This document shows positions 1,913 through 61,005 of a stretch of 64,000 nt of DNA, piece by piece. Every line of letters starts with the position of its first letter. Within the stretch, counting starts at the first letter, position 1. Source of the stretch: a phage. The translations under genes and the position numbers were made by a program. The stretch is taken from the sequence record NC_101838.1. One strand, 5' to 3'. The notes beneath the pieces were generated by a model, which was not told the DNA's origin, made no database searches, and saw nothing but the letters and a program-made list of their open reading frames with translations.

Positions 1913-3984
1913 TGGCAACAGCTGTTTTTAAACCTTACCGTGATTACTCTACAATGGCTGCACAGTTTCATTACCGCACAGTTCAGGATACTGCCGTTCC
2001 TGGTAGAGATTATGATCATGTTGAGGGCGATGTAACTATCCCAGTTGGGGCAACCAGTATTGAGATCCCAGTGGAAATTGTTGACAAATTACCCAACAGG
2101 TTGCCAAGAAGCTTCTTTATGGAGTTTTCATCAAAATCTCAAGGAGTGATGATTGGAACACAAAGGGCGAAATGTACAATAGTTTCAGATGAGAATCTTG
2201 ACAGGATATCTTGGGATACTGTTGAGGAGAGAATGTTTCACCCAAGATATTGGGTTACAACCACTCAGCAGACTGAAAGTACCTGTATTGTTGCAGATAA
2301 CAACTGTTGTATTAACCGTTTAGTGTCAAGAACATATGGAGGTATGGCTGGGTGCATTTGGGAAACAGTTGACAAGTATGACCATTTCGGTATTGGGTTT
2401 GATGATCACTATGAGATGAGAAACACCAAGCTTTGGTTCAGAATGTCAATAACCAACGCCAGCAACTTCTCCACTCCTGAAAAGATGATTATGACTGTAG
2501 ACCTTGTTGATGGCACAATCATCTATGTTCCTTTAGCTCAATATGCTGTCAGCATCTCAGAGGATAAAAATGTTGCAGAAATTCATATTGATTTTGAGGA
2601 CTGCGTCGGGATGGACCAGAACAACAACATGATGGGTGTTGATCCTCGGCAGGTGAGAAGGATTTTAATACCACTTATGCCTAAAGACTGGGTAAGTAAT
2701 AGCACAGATCCAAGAACGGAAAATGTAGAGTGTGAGTTGCGCCTAGATCTGCTTCAGCCAGACACAGGCTGGAAAATGATGCAACTTAATAATATCCAGG
2801 TGAGAGAGCACGACGTTGGGATCTGCACCGCATATGACGATATGTGGAACGTGTCCCCTTTAAGGGTGTTGAACAATATCAAGCGTCTGGGCTATACCGG
2901 AACCATAAACCATTATGTTGGTATGAGTCATTATTATGACTACACATGGTCAGGAACCCAATGGTCTATAAACAGAACAGGAGCGCTAAACGCTGCAGCT
3001 TATAAATGGCATGATGATTTTATGTACAATGCCAAACGACATAACTTCGACGTTATGCAATCTGTAAGTTTTGAGCTTTTCAGCGATGCCTGCCCGTTGG
3101 AATGGACCCAAAGAGACTGGAACGATAACTACGCTAAAACAGGGTATACACCTTGTAGCTACCTCCTGTCTCCAACCATTGAAGAGGGTATGAATTTCCT
3201 TACTGCAGTATTTAAGAATTTTGCATCAGCCGCTATGAGAAACAACCTGCCAGTGATTATGCAGGTTGGTGAACCGTGGTGGTGGTACAATACCGATACT
3301 CGTAGACCTTGTATTTATGATTACCCTACAAAACAGGCGTTTTATGATGAGACAGGCGAGTATGCATTAGATATTGGGACTATTGACGATCCTAAAACTG
3401 GCGGTGTTTACGATAAGTATGTAGCATTTTGTCGTGGTAAGCTTGGCGCTCGTATTGCTGCTATTTCAAAGGCAATAAAGGCACACGCTGCATCAGCTCA
3501 GATGACAGCTCTGCTGTTTTTCCCAACCATTATGGAAACCGAGCTTACGCAAAAGCTTAACCTTGCTGACCAATATAAAAAGGAAGCAGGTGCTCTTGAT
3601 TTCTTCTGCACCGAGTGCTACGATTGGGTGATGCAGGGAGGTATTGAAAAGGCAAAAGAGTCTGTAAACATACCTATCGTTAAGTTAGGTTGGCAACCGT
3701 CTGAAATACAATACCTTGCAGGGTTCGTTCCTAGTAAAGAGCTTGCTCCGGTATATGGTTACGACCCAACTAGGAATTACCAAGAATTTTTATGGAGATG
3801 TATTTGCGGAAACATGGCAACTATAGAGTATAGATACCCTGAGGTAAAACAGTATGTGTGGGCATACCCGCAAGTAATGTCTGACAGCATCACTGTTACC
3901 GCTAGAGATTCTACCGTGCTTCATATGGGGCAGGTTGCTCTGAAAGGGTATGTAGAAGATGTTGTCCCGCCAGACTTCTCATAA
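1912..3984 (+). CDS. hypothetical tail structural protein (690 aa)
   Basis: ORF track; AGGAGGG SD before ATG; lies between baseplate-like and tail fiber genes. Confidence 0.5.
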   Translation: MATAVFKPYRDYSTMAAQFHYRTVQDTAVPGRDYDHVEGDVTIPVGATSIEIPVEIVDKLPNRLPRSFFMEFSSKSQGVMIGTQRAKCTIVSDENLDRISWDTVEERMFHPRYWVTTTQQTESTCIVADNNCCINRLVSRTYGGMAGCIWETVDKYDHFGIGFDDHYEMRNTKLWFRMSITNASNFSTPEKMIMTVDLVDGTIIYVPLAQYAVSISEDKNVAEIHIDFEDCVGMDQNNNMMGVDPRQVRRILIPLMPKDWVSNSTDPRTENVECELRLDLLQPDTGWKMMQLNNIQVREHDVGICTAYDDMWNVSPLRVLNNIKRLGYTGTINHYVGMSHYYDYTWSGTQWSINRTGALNAAAYKWHDDFMYNAKRHNFDVMQSVSFELFSDACPLEWTQRDWNDNYAKTGYTPCSYLLSPTIEEGMNFLTAVFKNFASAAMRNNLPVIMQVGEPWWWYNTDTRRPCIYDYPTKQAFYDETGEYALDIGTIDDPKTGGVYDKYVAFCRGKLGARIAAISKAIKAHAASAQMTALLFFPTIMETELTQKLNLADQYKKEAGALDFFCTECYDWVMQGGIEKAKESVNIPIVKLGWQPSEIQYLAGFVPSKELAPVYGYDPTRNYQEFLWRCICGNMATIEYRYPEVKQYVWAYPQVMSDSITVTARDSTVLHMGQVALKGYVEDVVPPDFS

Positions 3985-19062: not shown

Positions 19063-20544
19063 TTACTTAGCGTACTCGATTAATTCCACAGTTTTCCCAA
19101 AGCTCGGGATATAATTTTTATTATACCCTTCGGTGAGAACCCATAAAGTATCGTACTTTTTCCACTTGTTGTCAACAGCCTTTTGTTCAAAGTTATGCTC
19201 AAAGTAGAGGTCGGTAAGGACGATGACATCTTTTGCATTCGGTATGTTAGCATCCAGATACTCGAACACGCAGGCGGCTGTTGTGCCCCATGTTGAGTGG
19301 ACCTCATAGTTAATCATCTCATCGATGTTACCGCGAGTGTATACTTTAACCTCTCCAACCTCCGTTGACCAACAGAACATAGTAACCTTAAACTCTTTAT
19401 ACAAATTGCACAACCCGGTGATCTCATTGAACATTTTCTTTAAAGTTCTTTGTGAGATCGACCCAGAAACGTCTAAAGCCACTACAATATCTATAGTGTT
19501 TTCCGGATTACGACCAGGAACAATAACGTGTTGATTCTTGTTTATAGCTCCAACTTTTCGCATTGTGGTGGTCAAAGACCCAGATCGGCGACCAGGTTTT
19601 CTGTAGGTTAACTCAGCCTTTCTTTTAGATAACATACGTTGCTTAATAATATCTATATAATTGATTACAGGCTTGCCTCTGTTTTTGACAAACTCGCGCA
19701 CCGCCTCGGGACAACGACCTCCTGAAGCTTGCATTGCTGCTTCCAACATGTCACCAGAGTCCTGCATGGCCTGATCTTTGTCAGATTGACTGATTACTGG
19801 TTGCGGCTGATCATACCCCATAGCCTTTCCAAGATCATCACTAGTGCCACCGTTCCCGCTCATGTGATCATCGGTTTGTCGTTTATCTCCTTGGGAGTTC
19901 TCACCTTTACCGTTCTTACTTTTACCGCCATTCTGATCTCTTTGTTTATCAAGAACTGCATAGACGTTCTCAGCAATCCATCCATGAAACCTCATGTCGC
20001 AGTAGCAATTAGCTAAGAAGCCAAAAGGCTTACCTTTTACGAACTCAGTGCTTTTCCCCTTCGGGAAGAAAACACAAGGAGGCTTGCTAAAGTCAACCAC
20101 AAGACCTGTGTTGATAACGTGATCACAAGCAATATTGAACAGTTCCGGCTCAAAGCTTTTACCACGGACCAGATGATCACAGATAATATGCCCCACCTCA
20201 TGTGACAGAAGAAAGGCCACCTCTTTCACAGATTTTGGGGAATAGAAAACCTCAGCCATCTCAAACTGCTTGTCAGTCAGAGATGCTTTAAGAATGGTTT
20301 TACGCTCATCCGCCAACCCCATAATGAACTCAGGGCTGTAGTAGATGCGTTTATGGTCGGTTGCCATGGTGGAGCACCATGTGTGGTTTTCTACGAACTG
20401 CAACCCTGACAGTAGTGTGCCATAAAACGGCAGCTTTTCAAGGAGATACATACGTGCAGCCTGCAACATTCTCAGGGCATCATCTTTCTGCGAGGCAATG
20501 ATTTCTGAACTTCTGCTATCCATTAAAACTCCAGAAGGGGCCAT
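19063..20544 (-). CDS. VWA-domain protein with N-terminal metallopeptidase-like HExxH region (CobT/DUF2201-like partner of MoxR ATPases)
   Basis: HEVGHIICDH motif in N-terminal half; MIDAS-like VVALDVSGSIS in C-terminal half. Confidence 0.6.
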   Translation of the reverse strand: MAPSGVLMDSRSSEIIASQKDDALRMLQAARMYLLEKLPFYGTLLSGLQFVENHTWCSTMATDHKRIYYSPEFIMGLADERKTILKASLTDKQFEMAEVFYSPKSVKEVAFLLSHEVGHIICDHLVRGKSFEPELFNIACDHVINTGLVVDFSKPPCVFFPKGKSTEFVKGKPFGFLANCYCDMRFHGWIAENVYAVLDKQRDQNGGKSKNGKGENSQGDKRQTDDHMSGNGGTSDDLGKAMGYDQPQPVISQSDKDQAMQDSGDMLEAAMQASGGRCPEAVREFVKNRGKPVINYIDIIKQRMLSKRKAELTYRKPGRRSGSLTTTMRKVGAINKNQHVIVPGRNPENTIDIVVALDVSGSISQRTLKKMFNEITGLCNLYKEFKVTMFCWSTEVGEVKVYTRGNIDEMINYEVHSTWGTTAACVFEYLDANIPNAKDVIVLTDLYFEHNFEQKAVDNKWKKYDTLWVLTEGYNKNYIPSFGKTVELIEYAK

Positions 20545-39562: not shown

Positions 39563-39847
39563 ATGGTAGTAGAGCCAACAAAAACATTTACATCCATGAC
39601 CATTCCTGTTATTATGCAGGTGGAGTGTGTTCAGGTATCTCAAGTGTGGCCTGGCACCAAAATCCCAACAGGGCCTGATTTCTTTCAGGTTGGGAAAGTG
39701 TACAATGTCTGGAAGGCACCAGATTGTTACCCTTTCATTAAAGATGACCGTGGGATGCTGTGGTATCTTGGAAATGACTTGACACTGCACCTTGGGAATG
39801 CTATTATTGCAGTATTCAGACTTAACAAGAAGGAGACCGATCAATGA
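39563..39847 (+). CDS. small paralog-family protein A
   Basis: ATG after AAGAGGAGAC; motif FFQVGKVYNVW...IKDDRGMLWYL shared with next two genes. Confidence 0.45.
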   Translation: MVVEPTKTFTSMTIPVIMQVECVQVSQVWPGTKIPTGPDFFQVGKVYNVWKAPDCYPFIKDDRGMLWYLGNDLTLHLGNAIIAVFRLNKKETDQ

Positions 39848-58081: not shown

Positions 58082-58501
58082 ATGAACATTAAATCTAATA
58101 ATCCGGCATATAGCTTTGATAACGCTTTTTGTCACGGTCCGGCGGCGAAAGGATTCGAAATCGATGGTAAACTAATTATTGTCAATGTTGACGGGGAAGA
58201 GGTTGCAGTATATCCGGTGGCAGACGTAAAAAGCCGTTTACAATGCCGCATGGATGTTACCGCCTATCAGCTTGATCCGGTTCGCATAGTTGCCCTGGTC
58301 CTGGAAGAAGAAATTAAAGCCATGCACCATAGCAACAGGTTTATTGGTGACGCTCAGGATAATATGAAGGTGTGCCGCCATAAAGTTAATGAAGTGCTTA
58401 AAGAGTACGGCTATAAAGATCTTATGATCAAACGTGATGAAAAATTCCGCTACCGTAACGACCTGGCAAATCGGATTTTTGAAATATACGAATCATTATA
58501 A
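58082..58501 (+). CDS. hypothetical protein (139 aa)
   Basis: TAAGAGG SD. Confidence 0.55.
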   Translation: MNIKSNNPAYSFDNAFCHGPAAKGFEIDGKLIIVNVDGEEVAVYPVADVKSRLQCRMDVTAYQLDPVRIVALVLEEEIKAMHHSNRFIGDAQDNMKVCRHKVNEVLKEYGYKDLMIKRDEKFRYRNDLANRIFEIYESL

Positions 58502-58519: not shown

Positions 58520-58545
58520 AAGGGGCTTAGCCCCTTTCTTTTTGT
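58520..58545 (+). terminator. intrinsic terminator ending the rightward small-gene module
   Basis: AAGGGGC-TTA-GCCCCTT followed by TCTTTTTGT. Confidence 0.6.
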
Positions 58546-59149
58546 CTGCTCTTCCCCCTACCATAAACGGCCCTACCTGGAAAGTGGAATAATTGACGAG
58601 CCATCAATCCCACACACTGTACAAACATACATGTAAAATAGCTATTGCATAACCTTTCATTGTGTGGTAGCGGTGCTATTTTTTACCAGTTTTCCTTCCA
58701 AAATTGCACGTAATGCAGCTATTGCATAAATTTTAACCTGATGCATATCTTCAATATCTTGTCAACAAATAAAAATTCTTATAAGTCATACACTTATACC
58801 CCCACAAAAGCGTTCTCTACGTGAAAAATCGGGCATAACTATAGCCGCCAGATCTCAGAATTTACGTACGCTCGCCATTCTATAGCCTGCTAAGTATTTA
58901 TTCCAACCATAGAATAATGGAATAGTCAATACCTGAATAAAATAATTATTCGTTTAAACTGCATAACATAAATCAGCTCAGGTGTCAACATTTTTCGTAA
59001 ACAGTCTTAAATTGTCACTGTGAGTTATCATAAACAGAGAAATCTTTAGTCGTCTAATGTTTACTGTACGTTACTATACTGACTGGAATCATTAGATGAC
59101 TAATAGAAAGATAAGAAATAATTAACGATACAATTATTTTACCTGTAAC

Positions 59150-59400
59150 AATAAGGCAACTATGCAAACGAATGGCATGGCGCGACGGAGTCGCGACATA
59201 ATATAAAAGCAGTAACCATCACCCCCGTGATAGTTTGTCTGCAAACTATTAATCAGATCATAGTTGCCTTGTATTTAGTTAATCATGACATAACAAGCAA
59301 GGCAACTATAGATCTTCTAATAGTTGCCCTGCTTTTATATTATGTCATGCTAATTATAATCAGTGCGATTATTGTCATGCAAACGAATGGCATGGCTTAT
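59150..59400. repeat. non-coding region of nested direct and inverted repeats
   Basis: 20-bp direct repeat ATGCAAACGAATGGCATGGC at 59162 and 59377; 18-bp inverted repeat GACATAATATAAAAGCAG at 59195 / 59329; GGCAACTAT in alternating orientation 4 times; palindrome CGCGAC-GGA-GTCGCG. Confidence 0.5.
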
Positions 59401-59458
59401 CATCTCTGTGTAAACAATCTATGCGTGAACAGTGAAACATGAAATAATAACAGTCGTT

Positions 59459-59515
59459 ATTGTGTCAAGTATTCCGATTGTGTCACCATTGTGTCTAAAG
59501 TGTCATATTGTGTCA
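59459..59515. repeat. iteron array: 5 copies of (T/A)TTGTGTCA at about 10-bp spacing
   Basis: TATTGTGTCA 59459, GATTGTGTCA 59477, CATTGTGTCT 59487, AAAGTGTCA 59497, TATTGTGTCA 59506. Confidence 0.5.
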
Positions 59516-60089
59516 GACAAGTTTTTCTCCTCTTTGTCAAGTGCTGCATGAAAAATTTACAAACTGGTATGGTAGCATTTTTGCGGACCTGTTTACATTC
59601 AGGAGTGTATGTATAATCCTTGTTGTGTGGGCGTTTATACGTCTGGACGGTCAGAAGTCTGCAGGTTAATATCTAATCTATTGGCTGCTAACTATATCCC
59701 ACACAAATGATAAGAAATATAATTGTTATATGCGTAAACTGTAACTCATGTTATCAATCCCTGTATGGATCGCCAGTGGTGCGCATAATGGGTATTATGT
59801 TAAATTGCCCGTAATGATAAAGGTTCTCACAATGATAGGTATTCTCATTCACCCTCACAAAATAGATTGCAAATGTTGTGCCACTGTGTGAACGGCCTCA
59901 CCTATTAATTTGCCTCACTGCCTCGATATTTGAGAATTATTATAAGAATGAGAAGTATTCCCATTCCGTCCGCCTGGCAGCACTCCTGTAGGTCCTGCAA
60001 GGACTCTAGCTTTCAGCTAGACCCTTCGGGCCTCCCTGTAGGTCAGGTCAAAATCGGGGTAGAATTGGGCCTATTCAGATATTTCTGGC

Positions 60090-60330
60090 TGACTCTTCAG
60101 GTCTGTGTGGGAAAAGCCAACCTCTCCGGCGGGGCAGGGGGATATCTGCGGGAAAATTGCAGGTCAATTAAAAAATTTACGTGGTATATGAAGCGCTCTT
60201 CAGGTAAGGCATGTATTATGGGATGAAACCCTCTTCAGGCAATGATATTTGTGGGTGTGATATTTGCTGGAAAGCCAGATATGACGGGACTCCCGGCGGG
60301 GCAGGGGTGGTACAGACAGGGAAAATATGA
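60090..60330. repeat. two degenerate tandem units carrying CTCTTCAGG and CCGGCGGGGCAGGGG motifs
   Basis: CTCTTCAGG at about 60095, 60197, 60232 (and 60645); CTCCGGCGGGGCAGGGGG at 60124 and CTCCCGGCGGGGCAGGGG at 60291. Confidence 0.4.
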
Positions 60331-61005
60331 AGGATGTGGTTGGGTAGATTGATCAGACAGGTAGAGTATGGAATATGTTACAAGTATGTTAAATATGGAG
60401 GTTGAATATCTGTAGGATTTGTGTGTAAAATCAAAGACTTAAGTGGTGTTGTGGTATTTTCTATAAATAATTCAAGTTTAATAGGCAATATTTGTCTCTA
60501 TCCGCTTTGTGTGGTAAACAGATTCAGATTAGATTGGTTTACAAGTGTATACATAATATACAAATTAAAGATACAAGAAACCCCCCCTCCCCCCTTCGGC
60601 TACCATTCACCTTTTCCTCTGACTGGTACTTAAACACTTATTCAGACTCTTCAGGTTATCACCCATATATCATATGGCAGTGACTGGTGTCCTCCGGCCC
60701 CTCTTTCGTCACCCGTCCGCTTCGCCATGCTAATGCCATAGCTAATGGTTCGGTTGTTCACCCTGTTCACTCAGGTGTATCTCTATACCCCTTCAAACCG
60801 AAGAGAACAGAAAACCCGAATTACTCGGTAAAAGAAAAGAGAAGAACTTAATTTTATCAGGATAGGCAAGAATGTCAAGGTATGACTGCTCACTAAACAA
60901 GCAAACAGTCATGTGTGGGAGGTAAGTGATTGTGGTGGTAGGAAATTTAGTTGAAAGATGTGTTATAGGTGCTTCCAGCACTTTAGCCGGGCAGCTAATT
61001 GTGTG

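Follow-up and report, generated by a model that had tools for sequence, protein, structure and literature searches.

The closest described counterparts of the locus examined here are the genome ends of phages T7 and N4. The locus is a cluster of nested repeats at 59150–59400 of a 64-kb stretch of phage DNA (64,000 nucleotides of record NC_101838.1), which was analysed in full and is referred to as the window herein. At the right end of T7, an imperfect inverted repeat (39,568–39,608) is followed by CCTAAAG-type arrays and then by the 160-bp terminal repeat, which starts at 39,778. The inverted repeat of T7 and T3, approximately 190 bp to the left of the terminal repeat, is accompanied by the SRR short-repeat arrays and pac signals, and in T7 it forms a simple imperfect hairpin with a 3-nt loop and 19-nt arms that are 79% complementary. 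In concatemers of the T7 type, duplication of the repeat takes several steps, and a hairpin structure containing the repeat has been reported in T7 infection (PMC4281155). How the concatemers are cut and the second copy of the repeat is regenerated is poorly understood even for T7 (PMC13595956). In N4, which has a direct terminal repeat (DTR) of ~500 bp, the inverted repeats close to the ends are believed to work via hairpins or hairpin priming (PMC3896407).

The window belongs to an rV5-like coliphage of the genus Vequintavirus, and ~120 phage records match it at 90–95% identity. Neither the DTR of this phage group nor the layout of T7 is new: in HdK5, EdH4 and Gotham, relatives whose ends have been mapped, the DTR is 459 bp long (PMC6563267; PMC7471380), and the start sequence of Gotham is identical in all virions (Dias et al., PMC7471380). 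A literature search found no description of a conserved, covarying inverted-repeat module beside the DTR. We propose that the repeats at 59150–59400 are such a module, a DNA hairpin or cruciform that forms part of a T7-type region for concatemer-junction processing and packaging, and we put the chances of this proposal at about even. The most likely function of the element is to help cut and package the genome. The role in end processing and packaging that we infer for it draws on its position relative to mapped ends, a T7-like order of features, an architecture found across genera, covariation within its stems, the folding of both strands, a covariance-model match and a gap in the transposon insertions of the relative Bas54.

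The repeat module and its place beside the genome ends

The original prediction, made from the letters of the window, had described a 20-nt direct repeat bracketing an 18-nt inverted repeat, four copies of a short motif and a G+C-rich palindrome, and all of these repeats were recovered where it had placed them (Table 1). The direct repeat, ATGCAAACGAATGGCATGGC, occurs as two exact copies and has no third copy in the window even when up to three mismatches are allowed (0.02 expected). The arms of the inverted repeat, GACATAATATAAAAGCAG and CTGCTTTTATATTATGTC, are 100% complementary and have 116 nt between them, the four GGCAACTAT motifs alternate in orientation (59155, +; 59260, −; 59301, +; 59320, −), and the palindrome is CGCGAC-GGA-GTCGCG. 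Overlooked by the original prediction were the hairpins nested between the arms (59218–59231, 59230–59249 and 59260–59309) and the repeat arrays to the right (59402–59515). In the arrangement that we propose, the core of the module would be an outer 18-bp perfect stem (59195–59212 with 59329–59346) closing these internal hairpins, with the G+C-rich mini-hairpin before it and the 20-nt repeat bracketing it. The GGCAACTAT copies at 59155 and 59260 are also part of a further inverted repeat (59146–59164 with 59259–59277) that is 84% complementary.

The 18-nt repeat is the sole perfect inverted repeat of at least 14 nt with a gap of 20–300 nt in the window (shuffled mean 0.03), and when the minimum is lowered to 12 nt, three of the three perfect inverted repeats in the window lie inside the element. 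The GGCAACTAT motif is present six times in the window versus 0.44 expected, a count that was reached by none of 100 shuffles. When the element was folded as DNA, its two strands gave −53.8 and −55.2 kcal/mol (z = −9.6 and −9.1), and folding as RNA gave z scores of −9.2 and −9.4 for the two strands versus shuffles. Among the small hairpins, many carry a GNA or AAA triloop with a closing C-G pair, a combination that is typical of very stable DNA mini-hairpins.

The element is found within a gene-free gap of ~2.5 kb (roughly 58540–60800), drawn as a ‘non-coding’ box in the rV5 genome paper (PMC3606486). Since small genes on the + strand lie to the left and genes on the − strand to the right, the gap is a convergent junction. 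Nowhere in the window is the A+T content higher than in this gap (GC 0.379 versus ~0.44), and its conservation, ~85–90% identity, equals that of the neighbouring genes except at two indel hot-spots, 59350–59520 and 59975–60170. These lie beside the DTR and are thus the two flanks of the terminal repeat.

In many database records, the genome has been opened at a point a few hundred bases away from the element. The HdK5 record has an exact 459-bp repeat at both ends, which maps to 59516–59974 of the window; its boundaries fall between TATTGTGTCA and GACAAGTTTTTC on one side and between CCGTCCGCC and TGGCAGC on the other. At least seven independent records, those of EdH4, YN3, Aya, ECP2303, bov22_2, bov11CS3 and Pr121LW, start or stop exactly at DTR boundaries. 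The fixed ends are taken from these records of relatives and from published mapping. In the record of phage I29 (ON286975.1, 104224–105275), the DTR query was matched as two adjacent pieces of ~1,050 bp in total, which suggests that this record retains two tandem copies of the terminal repeat.

These ends bear on the functions that the original prediction had listed for such an architecture, namely a cos or pac region, a recombination site or an origin. A cos site is excluded, as the ends of the relatives are exact 459-bp direct terminal repeats and not cohesive (PMC6563267; PMC7471380). A site-specific recombination site has no support: the window has no recombinase, and the element occurs only once and is missing from bacterial genomes. 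The pac or terminus idea holds to the extent that the physical ends adjoin the element. The ends are not inside 59150–59400, and lie instead between 59515 and 59516 and between 59974 and 59975, at least 119 bp to its right. An absence of termini, which had been named as the outcome that would count against the prediction, is thus true of these coordinates in the literal sense and untrue in substance, the element being part of the terminus region.

The second 20-mer lies 119 bp, and the right arm 169 bp, to the left of the DTR. The spacer that bears both short-repeat arrays spans 112–219 nt in 20 relatives, among which the copy numbers are freely variable; the (T)TGTGTC(A) array is annotated as a repeat_region in navn, nomo and Alma. 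The left DTR boundary is inside a small palindrome, TGTC-A-GACA (59511–59519), to which the last box and the opening bases of the DTR contribute, and in 20 of 20 relatives the array terminates as TGTCA/GACAAG, with the boundary at the stroke. On the right flank the motifs (CTCTTCAGG, CCTGTAGGTC and CCGGCGGGGCAGGGG) are distinct from those on the left. The 9-mer CTCTTCAGG occurs five times, always on the + strand (60093, 60196, 60231, 60647 and 61295), where 0.5 copies would be expected in the whole window.

This layout agrees with that of T7 in having an exact direct terminal repeat and fixed ends, in the order of inverted repeat, short-repeat arrays and terminal repeat on the same side, and in having short-repeat arrays on both sides of the terminal repeat. 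Unlike the inverted repeat of T7, the arms here and in the sister genera described below are perfect, measure 18–21 nt and lie 116–217 nt apart, with conserved hairpins between them. The phage is also a 136-kb myovirus using host RNA polymerase rather than a T7-like podovirus, its repeat is 459 bp versus 160 bp, and there is no sequence similarity between the two. With N4 the locus shares a DTR and inverted repeats near the ends. The repeats of N4, however, occupy the extreme 3' ends and act in the initiation of replication, whereas the element described here is 170–320 bp outside the terminal repeat and present once per genome.

Within Vequintavirus, both arms, the first 20-mer and the G+C-rich hairpin show zero variation in 20 phages. 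Between the arms, substitutions affect 8 of 122 positions predicted to be paired versus 11 of 30 predicted to be unpaired (p = 8e-5 in the same 20 phages). The tip of stem 2 has a 33-nt insertion in rV5, TP5 and LL12, and an A-to-T change at 59245 disrupts the hairpin at 59230–59249 in six relatives. The cassette between the right arm and the second 20-mer is composed of A+T-rich units of ~15 nt, to which a module of three small G+C hairpins may be added. In many relatives these tiny hairpins are CACCC-GAA-GGGTG, GGTGACC-AAA-GGTCACC and CTGGC-ATA-GCCAG. Triloop mini-hairpins resembling them also compose insertions in Mydo and rV5 and look like a recurrent insertable unit. An imperfect inverted repeat with 22-nt arms, 82% complementary around a 14-nt loop, is found ~50 bp upstream of the element (59046–59103), in a well-conserved stretch.

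An almost invariant core between flanks that are ~10% different, with direct repeats bracketing inverted repeats, could also be what is left of a small, non-autonomous mobile element. The inverted repeats would then be its ends and the 20-nt repeat its target duplication, and the phage FV3, which has exactly one 20-mer and nothing between, would represent the empty site. Against this, the direct repeats do not abut the arms, from which they are 13 nt away on the left and 13–89 nt away on the right, and the element is present as a single copy in the window. The 20-mer had no matches in a set of 185,579 bacterial and archaeal species, each represented by one genome, and the arm was found in IMG/VR in two Vequintavirus-like contigs only, both with the same paired arrangement of arms. 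Moreover, two other genera have a probably homologous element at the equivalent position, which indicates that the element is ancestral and that FV3 arose by deletion and is not an empty site. We consider a mobile element to be very improbable, and this reading to be largely refuted. Palindromes flanked by direct repeats are classically lost during replication and cloning. The FV3 record, the only one of ~120 with a loss of this type, may represent a real, viable deletion or equally an artefact of cloning or assembly.

The equivalent element in sister genera and the choice between DNA and RNA

The Klebsiella phage KPP-1 (Mydovirus) has a DTR of 514 bp and was assigned T7-type packaging by PhageTerm (PMC9862379), and its DTR is also situated at a convergent gene junction. 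A blastn comparison of KPP-1 with the window gave one 37-nt match only, inside the DTR, and tblastx gave none. On the same side of the DTR as in the window, 308 bp outside it, KPP-1 carries a 21-nt inverted repeat that is perfect and whose arms are separated by 164 nt. This repeat encloses nested hairpins and is preceded by a G+C hairpin.

We therefore compared 12 sequences of the sister genera Mydovirus and Seunavirus: KPP-1, Mydo, K18, PVP-SE1, KE23, 4MG, GAP31, EC152, KNP2, BIS47, Ro1 and one IMG/VR contig. An inverted repeat of 18–21 nt with arms 163–217 nt apart was present on the same side of the DTR in 12 of 12, and it was perfect in all except EC152, which has one mismatch. The inner ends of the arms read GGGAG, GAGAG, GAGGG, GGGG or TAGGG, each complemented on the opposite arm, and the same holds for ACAATAAC versus ACTATAAC. 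When RNAalifold was applied to the 12-sequence alignment, the outer stem, hairpin 1, stem 2 and hairpin 3 were recovered. Within these stems 99.6% of cells are paired, and eight pairs (24 cells) are changed on both sides, a level reached in none of 500 shuffles and compared with 0–1 in slid controls. No variation was confined to one side, and every change was from one Watson-Crick pair to another, which is the pattern expected if both DNA strands must pair. Insertions in the sister sequences are located in loops, including one of 53 nt in the hairpin 1 loop of Mydo.

In the sister genera and the window alike, the element lies on the same side of the DTR and at the same convergent junction, and a G+C hairpin precedes a long and perfect outer stem that encloses hairpin 1 and stem 2, the latter with a variable tip. 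The GTGTAAACNGTCAAG and TTATTGTGTC boxes are likewise common to the two, as is the beginning of the DTR (TTCTC..CTTGTCAAG). Where the window has CGCGAC-GGA-GTCGCG, the G+C-rich hairpin of the sister genera begins with GGCGCGAGCG. The left arm of the window together with the two preceding nucleotides matches the arm of KPP-1 at 14 of 20 positions, and each of these arms leads into TAAC. The two differ in that the arms are A+T-rich in the window and G+C-rich in the sister genera, and hairpin 3 has no clear counterpart in the window. A direct repeat brackets the element in Vequintavirus only; in the sister genera the second copy is inside the element.

A covariance model was built from the sister-genus elements only, without any Vequintavirus sequence. 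With filters off, the top match in a 5-kb scan, a weak one, was at exactly 59196–59345 (+), running from arm to arm with stem 2 aligned to stem 2. We regard homology between the window element and the sister-genus element as likely. The sister-genus element had apparently not been described before.

Two boxes that touch on this comparison were also noted. The box GTGTAAACTGTCAAG, between the module and the DTR, is common to KPP-1 (L022 ~3200–3215, −; one copy) and to several Vequintaviruses (FV3 and EPFV3) in spite of their general dissimilarity, and TTATTGTGTC is a component of the inverted-repeat arms in the sister genera and of an array in the window. Both boxes are candidate terminase recognition sites. 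The TTATTGTGTC boxes were also considered as DnaA boxes and, as judged by eye, did not match the consensus.

A structure that folds this well could also act in a transcript, as a pair of face-to-face intrinsic terminators that halt both converging transcription units and insulate the genome end, as a structured non-coding RNA or as an RNase III processing site. In the terminator version, each 18-nt arm would be the U-rich tail of a hairpin on one strand. On the + strand, a hairpin at 59295–59334 (−20.4 kcal/mol, z = −4.7) is indeed followed by TTTTATATTATG, and on the − strand a hairpin at 59250–59209 (−20 kcal/mol, z = −3.8) is followed by a tail identical to TTTTATATTATG. In this window, then, the arms resemble convergent terminators in being T-rich tails that follow a stable hairpin on each strand at a convergent junction. 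The annotators of Murica called a terminator here, and the authors of the rV5 paper expected bidirectional terminators between genes 163 and 164 and found none (PMC3606486).

The sister genera argue otherwise. Their arms are G+C-rich (AGCGACACAATAACACGGGAG) and without a U-tract, yet still perfectly complementary save for the one mismatch of EC152, so terminator tails are not the conserved function. The hairpins of the window also face each other, unlike those of convergent terminators, and the resulting transcripts would overlap by ~140 nt. Each gene block already has a strong terminator behind its last gene (58520–58536 and 60828–60816), and no convincing promoter was found upstream of the element. 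Searches of Rfam 15 returned no match at E ≤1 in the window between 58000 and 61500 and none at E ≤0.1 in four sister loci. A perfect helix of 18–21 bp is unusual for a stable RNA, and there are no G.U variants among the 24 double changes. The four GGCAACTAT copies would permit alternative pairings of the attenuator type (1:2, 2:3 and 3:4). Such a switch was rejected, as there is nothing downstream to regulate and the motif is absent from the sister genera.

We consider an RNA-level element unlikely on this evidence, with termination perhaps a secondary role that the structure may have in Vequintavirus. Watson-Crick-only covariation, the equal folding of both strands, the lack of an upstream promoter or Rfam match and the terminators that already end the gene blocks instead favour a structure that forms in DNA.

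A proposed role in duplicating and releasing the terminal repeat

In a head-to-tail concatemer, the terminal repeat is present once per junction, and precise cutting together with duplication is needed for each packaged genome to receive a copy at both ends. The module lies on the right-end side of this junction. In the pathway that we envisage, the short-repeat arrays beside the cut site would be the likely recognition sites of the terminase, and nicking and strand-displacement synthesis would render the DNA here single-stranded. The inverted-repeat module could then snap into a hairpin, or into a cruciform if both strands fold. This structure would serve as a structural signal, or as a fold-back primer, for duplicating and releasing the terminal repeat.

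As a tentative extension, which is possible and which we hold with less confidence than even chances would imply, we suggest that strictly Watson-Crick compensation has kept a conserved DNA cruciform or fold-back module in large myoviruses of no fewer than three genera, and that this module, as a structural signal or self-primer, enables terminase and polymerase to duplicate the DTR and release it from concatemers. In a stronger version of this idea, the perfect identity of the arms would reflect the mechanism itself, with one arm being copied from the other at each fold-back.

Transposon data from Bas54 bear on this region. In a saturated transposon library of that phage, there were no insertions between bas54_0134 and bas54_0135 (bioRxiv 10.1101/2025.11.20.689424). 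MaxBurger bears bas54 locus tags, and the insertion-free gap corresponds to the same locus as the gap in the window; it covers 92,786–95,297 of MZ501093.1, in which the module is at ~93,385–93,723.

Several observations weigh against a role for the module in end formation. The insertion-free stretch of Bas54 comprises the whole 2.5 kb, including the DTR and both of its flanks, and not the module specifically. FV3 (NC_019517) has a single 20-mer and lacks the 215 bp between the copies while keeping the arrays and the DTR, and the module may therefore not be essential by itself if this record is correct; FV3 is the chief observation against an essential role. The match to the covariance model was weak (13.1 bits, E ~0.03), and with default filters the model gave no match in the window. 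The missing G.U intermediates rest on 12 sequences, and the A.C mismatch of EC152 corresponds to a G.U pair on the other strand. The identity of the arms could be maintained by arm-to-arm copying instead of selection on structure. The role of the hairpin in T7 is itself a model and not settled, and a 2026 review describes DTR generation as ‘less understood’ than the cos or headful mechanisms (PMC13595956). Finally, the rV5 genome paper and one PhageTerm-based announcement call these genomes circularly permuted. This description conflicts with the mapped fixed ends, and many GenBank records are thus linearised arbitrarily.

The same features could mark a replication origin or a single-strand priming site near the genome end, where hairpins on unwound DNA would recruit a primase-helicase of the T7 gp4 type or the host primosome, or would prime by fold-back as proposed for N4. 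This reading overlaps with the one that we prefer, in that both work via DNA hairpins beside the terminal repeat, and the sequence alone does not distinguish an origin from a packaging site. Watson-Crick-only covariation and the folding of both strands would also suit an origin, as would the A+T-richness of the gap, the presence of several iteron-like arrays and the transposon mapping of Bas54, by which the region is essential. At its ends N4, whose DTRs are ~500 bp, employs inverted repeats and primes from hairpins (PMC3896407). The secondary origin phiOR of T7 is in the same right-end region, and the phage of the window encodes its own primase-helicase and Pol A. An initiator gene or a recognisable DNA-binding protein or domain is, however, missing among the neighbours. 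The copy numbers of the arrays vary freely from 1 to 7, and the module is absent from FV3. Skew analysis of rV5 could not separate an origin from a switch in transcription direction (PMC3606486). Overall, we regard an origin as rather unlikely.

Should the proposed role in end formation be correct, the module would provide a defined, mutable cis element for a long-unresolved step of T7-type end formation, in a phage using host RNA polymerase. The element is compact and has clear boundaries 120–170 bp from mapped ends, its structure is supported by covariation in sister genera, and the phage group is widely isolated and relevant to therapy. In practical terms, the locus gives the correct start point for linearising and annotating the ~120 Vequintavirus genomes, which in many cases were submitted as ‘circularly permuted’, and it marks a region to keep intact when these phages are engineered.

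Feature coordinates and neighbouring genes

Table 1. Features of the gene-free gap, in window coordinates.
Feature	Position	Strand	Remarks
Intrinsic terminator, AAGGGGCTTAGCCCCTT then T-run	58520..58536	+	Ends left gene block; left edge of gene-free region
GGCAACTAT copy 1	59155..59163	+	Can pair with copy at 59260
Direct repeat copy 1, ATGCAAACGAATGGCATGGC	59162..59181	+	Small hairpin possible, 9-nt loop; invariant in 20 relatives
G+C-rich mini-hairpin, CGCGAC-GGA-GTCGCG	59181..59195		Directly 5' of left arm; invariant
Left arm of 18-nt perfect inverted repeat (outer stem)	59195..59212		
Two small internal hairpins	59218..59249		ATCAC-CCCC-GTGAT (59218-59231); ATAGTTTG-TCTG-CAAACTAT (59230-59249)
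Long internal stem 2, ATAGTTGCCTTG / CAAGGCAACTAT	59260..59309		GGCAACTAT copies 2 and 3; perfect 12-bp stem, variable tip
GGCAACTAT copy 4	59320..59328	-	With copy 3, alternative 15-bp hairpin 59295-59334
Right arm of 18-nt perfect inverted repeat (outer stem)	59329..59346		
Hypervariable cassette, right arm to second 20-mer	59347..59376		13-89 nt in relatives
Direct repeat copy 2	59377..59396	+	One mismatch in 4 relatives; absent from V18; sole remaining copy in FV3
Array of ~15-nt GT(A/G)AACA units	59402..59431	+	2 copies in window; 1-7 in relatives
Array of five (T)TGTGTC(A) boxes	59456..59515	+	Abuts DTR; copy number varies among relatives
Equivalent of the 459-bp DTR	59516..59974		Single copy in circularly assembled window
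Right flank of DTR	59975..60310	+	Indel hot-spot; CCTGTAGGTC x2, CCGGCGGGGCAGGGG x2, CTCTTCAGG boxes

The gene content of the window includes replication genes, rII genes and tail fibres, and a terminase gene was sought in the window and not found. When the six small genes neighbouring the gap were searched against Pfam and PHROGs, no domains were found and the matches were to families of unknown function only. Pfam gave no support for the GenBank label ‘DNA translocase FtsK’ on an 87-amino-acid gene, and the 87-amino-acid genes of the window and of KPP-1 are not homologous. The terminator that ends the left gene block has an annotated equivalent in Murica and Alma.

To the left of the gap, an open reading frame of 139 amino acids (58082–58501; PHROG 12277, unknown function) is present in rV5, Murica and MaxBurger and absent from Alma, nomo, ECML-10, FV3 and HdK5. 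Some records annotate it as ‘contains Rel homology domain’, for which Pfam gave no support. To the right, a near-consensus sigma-70 promoter (60851–60878, −; TTGACA, a 16-nt spacer, TAAAAT and an extended −10 TG; 11 of 12 matches) is directed leftwards into the gene-free region, and a terminator-like hairpin (60816–60828, −) follows almost directly. The product of this promoter might be a short transcript, or an RNA that reads through across the DTR.

Elsewhere in the window, an open reading frame of 493 amino acids for an HNH endonuclease (19063–20544, −; PHROG 1314) lies on the strand opposite to its neighbours and is possibly a homing endonuclease. Among the related records, ~19 with accessions of the form MG0656xx (e.g. 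MG065646 and MG065658) are named ‘Campylobacter phage’ with Campylobacter jejuni as host. Since they are ~88–95% identical to E. coli Vequintaviruses at this locus, these isolates are probably mislabelled or contaminated.

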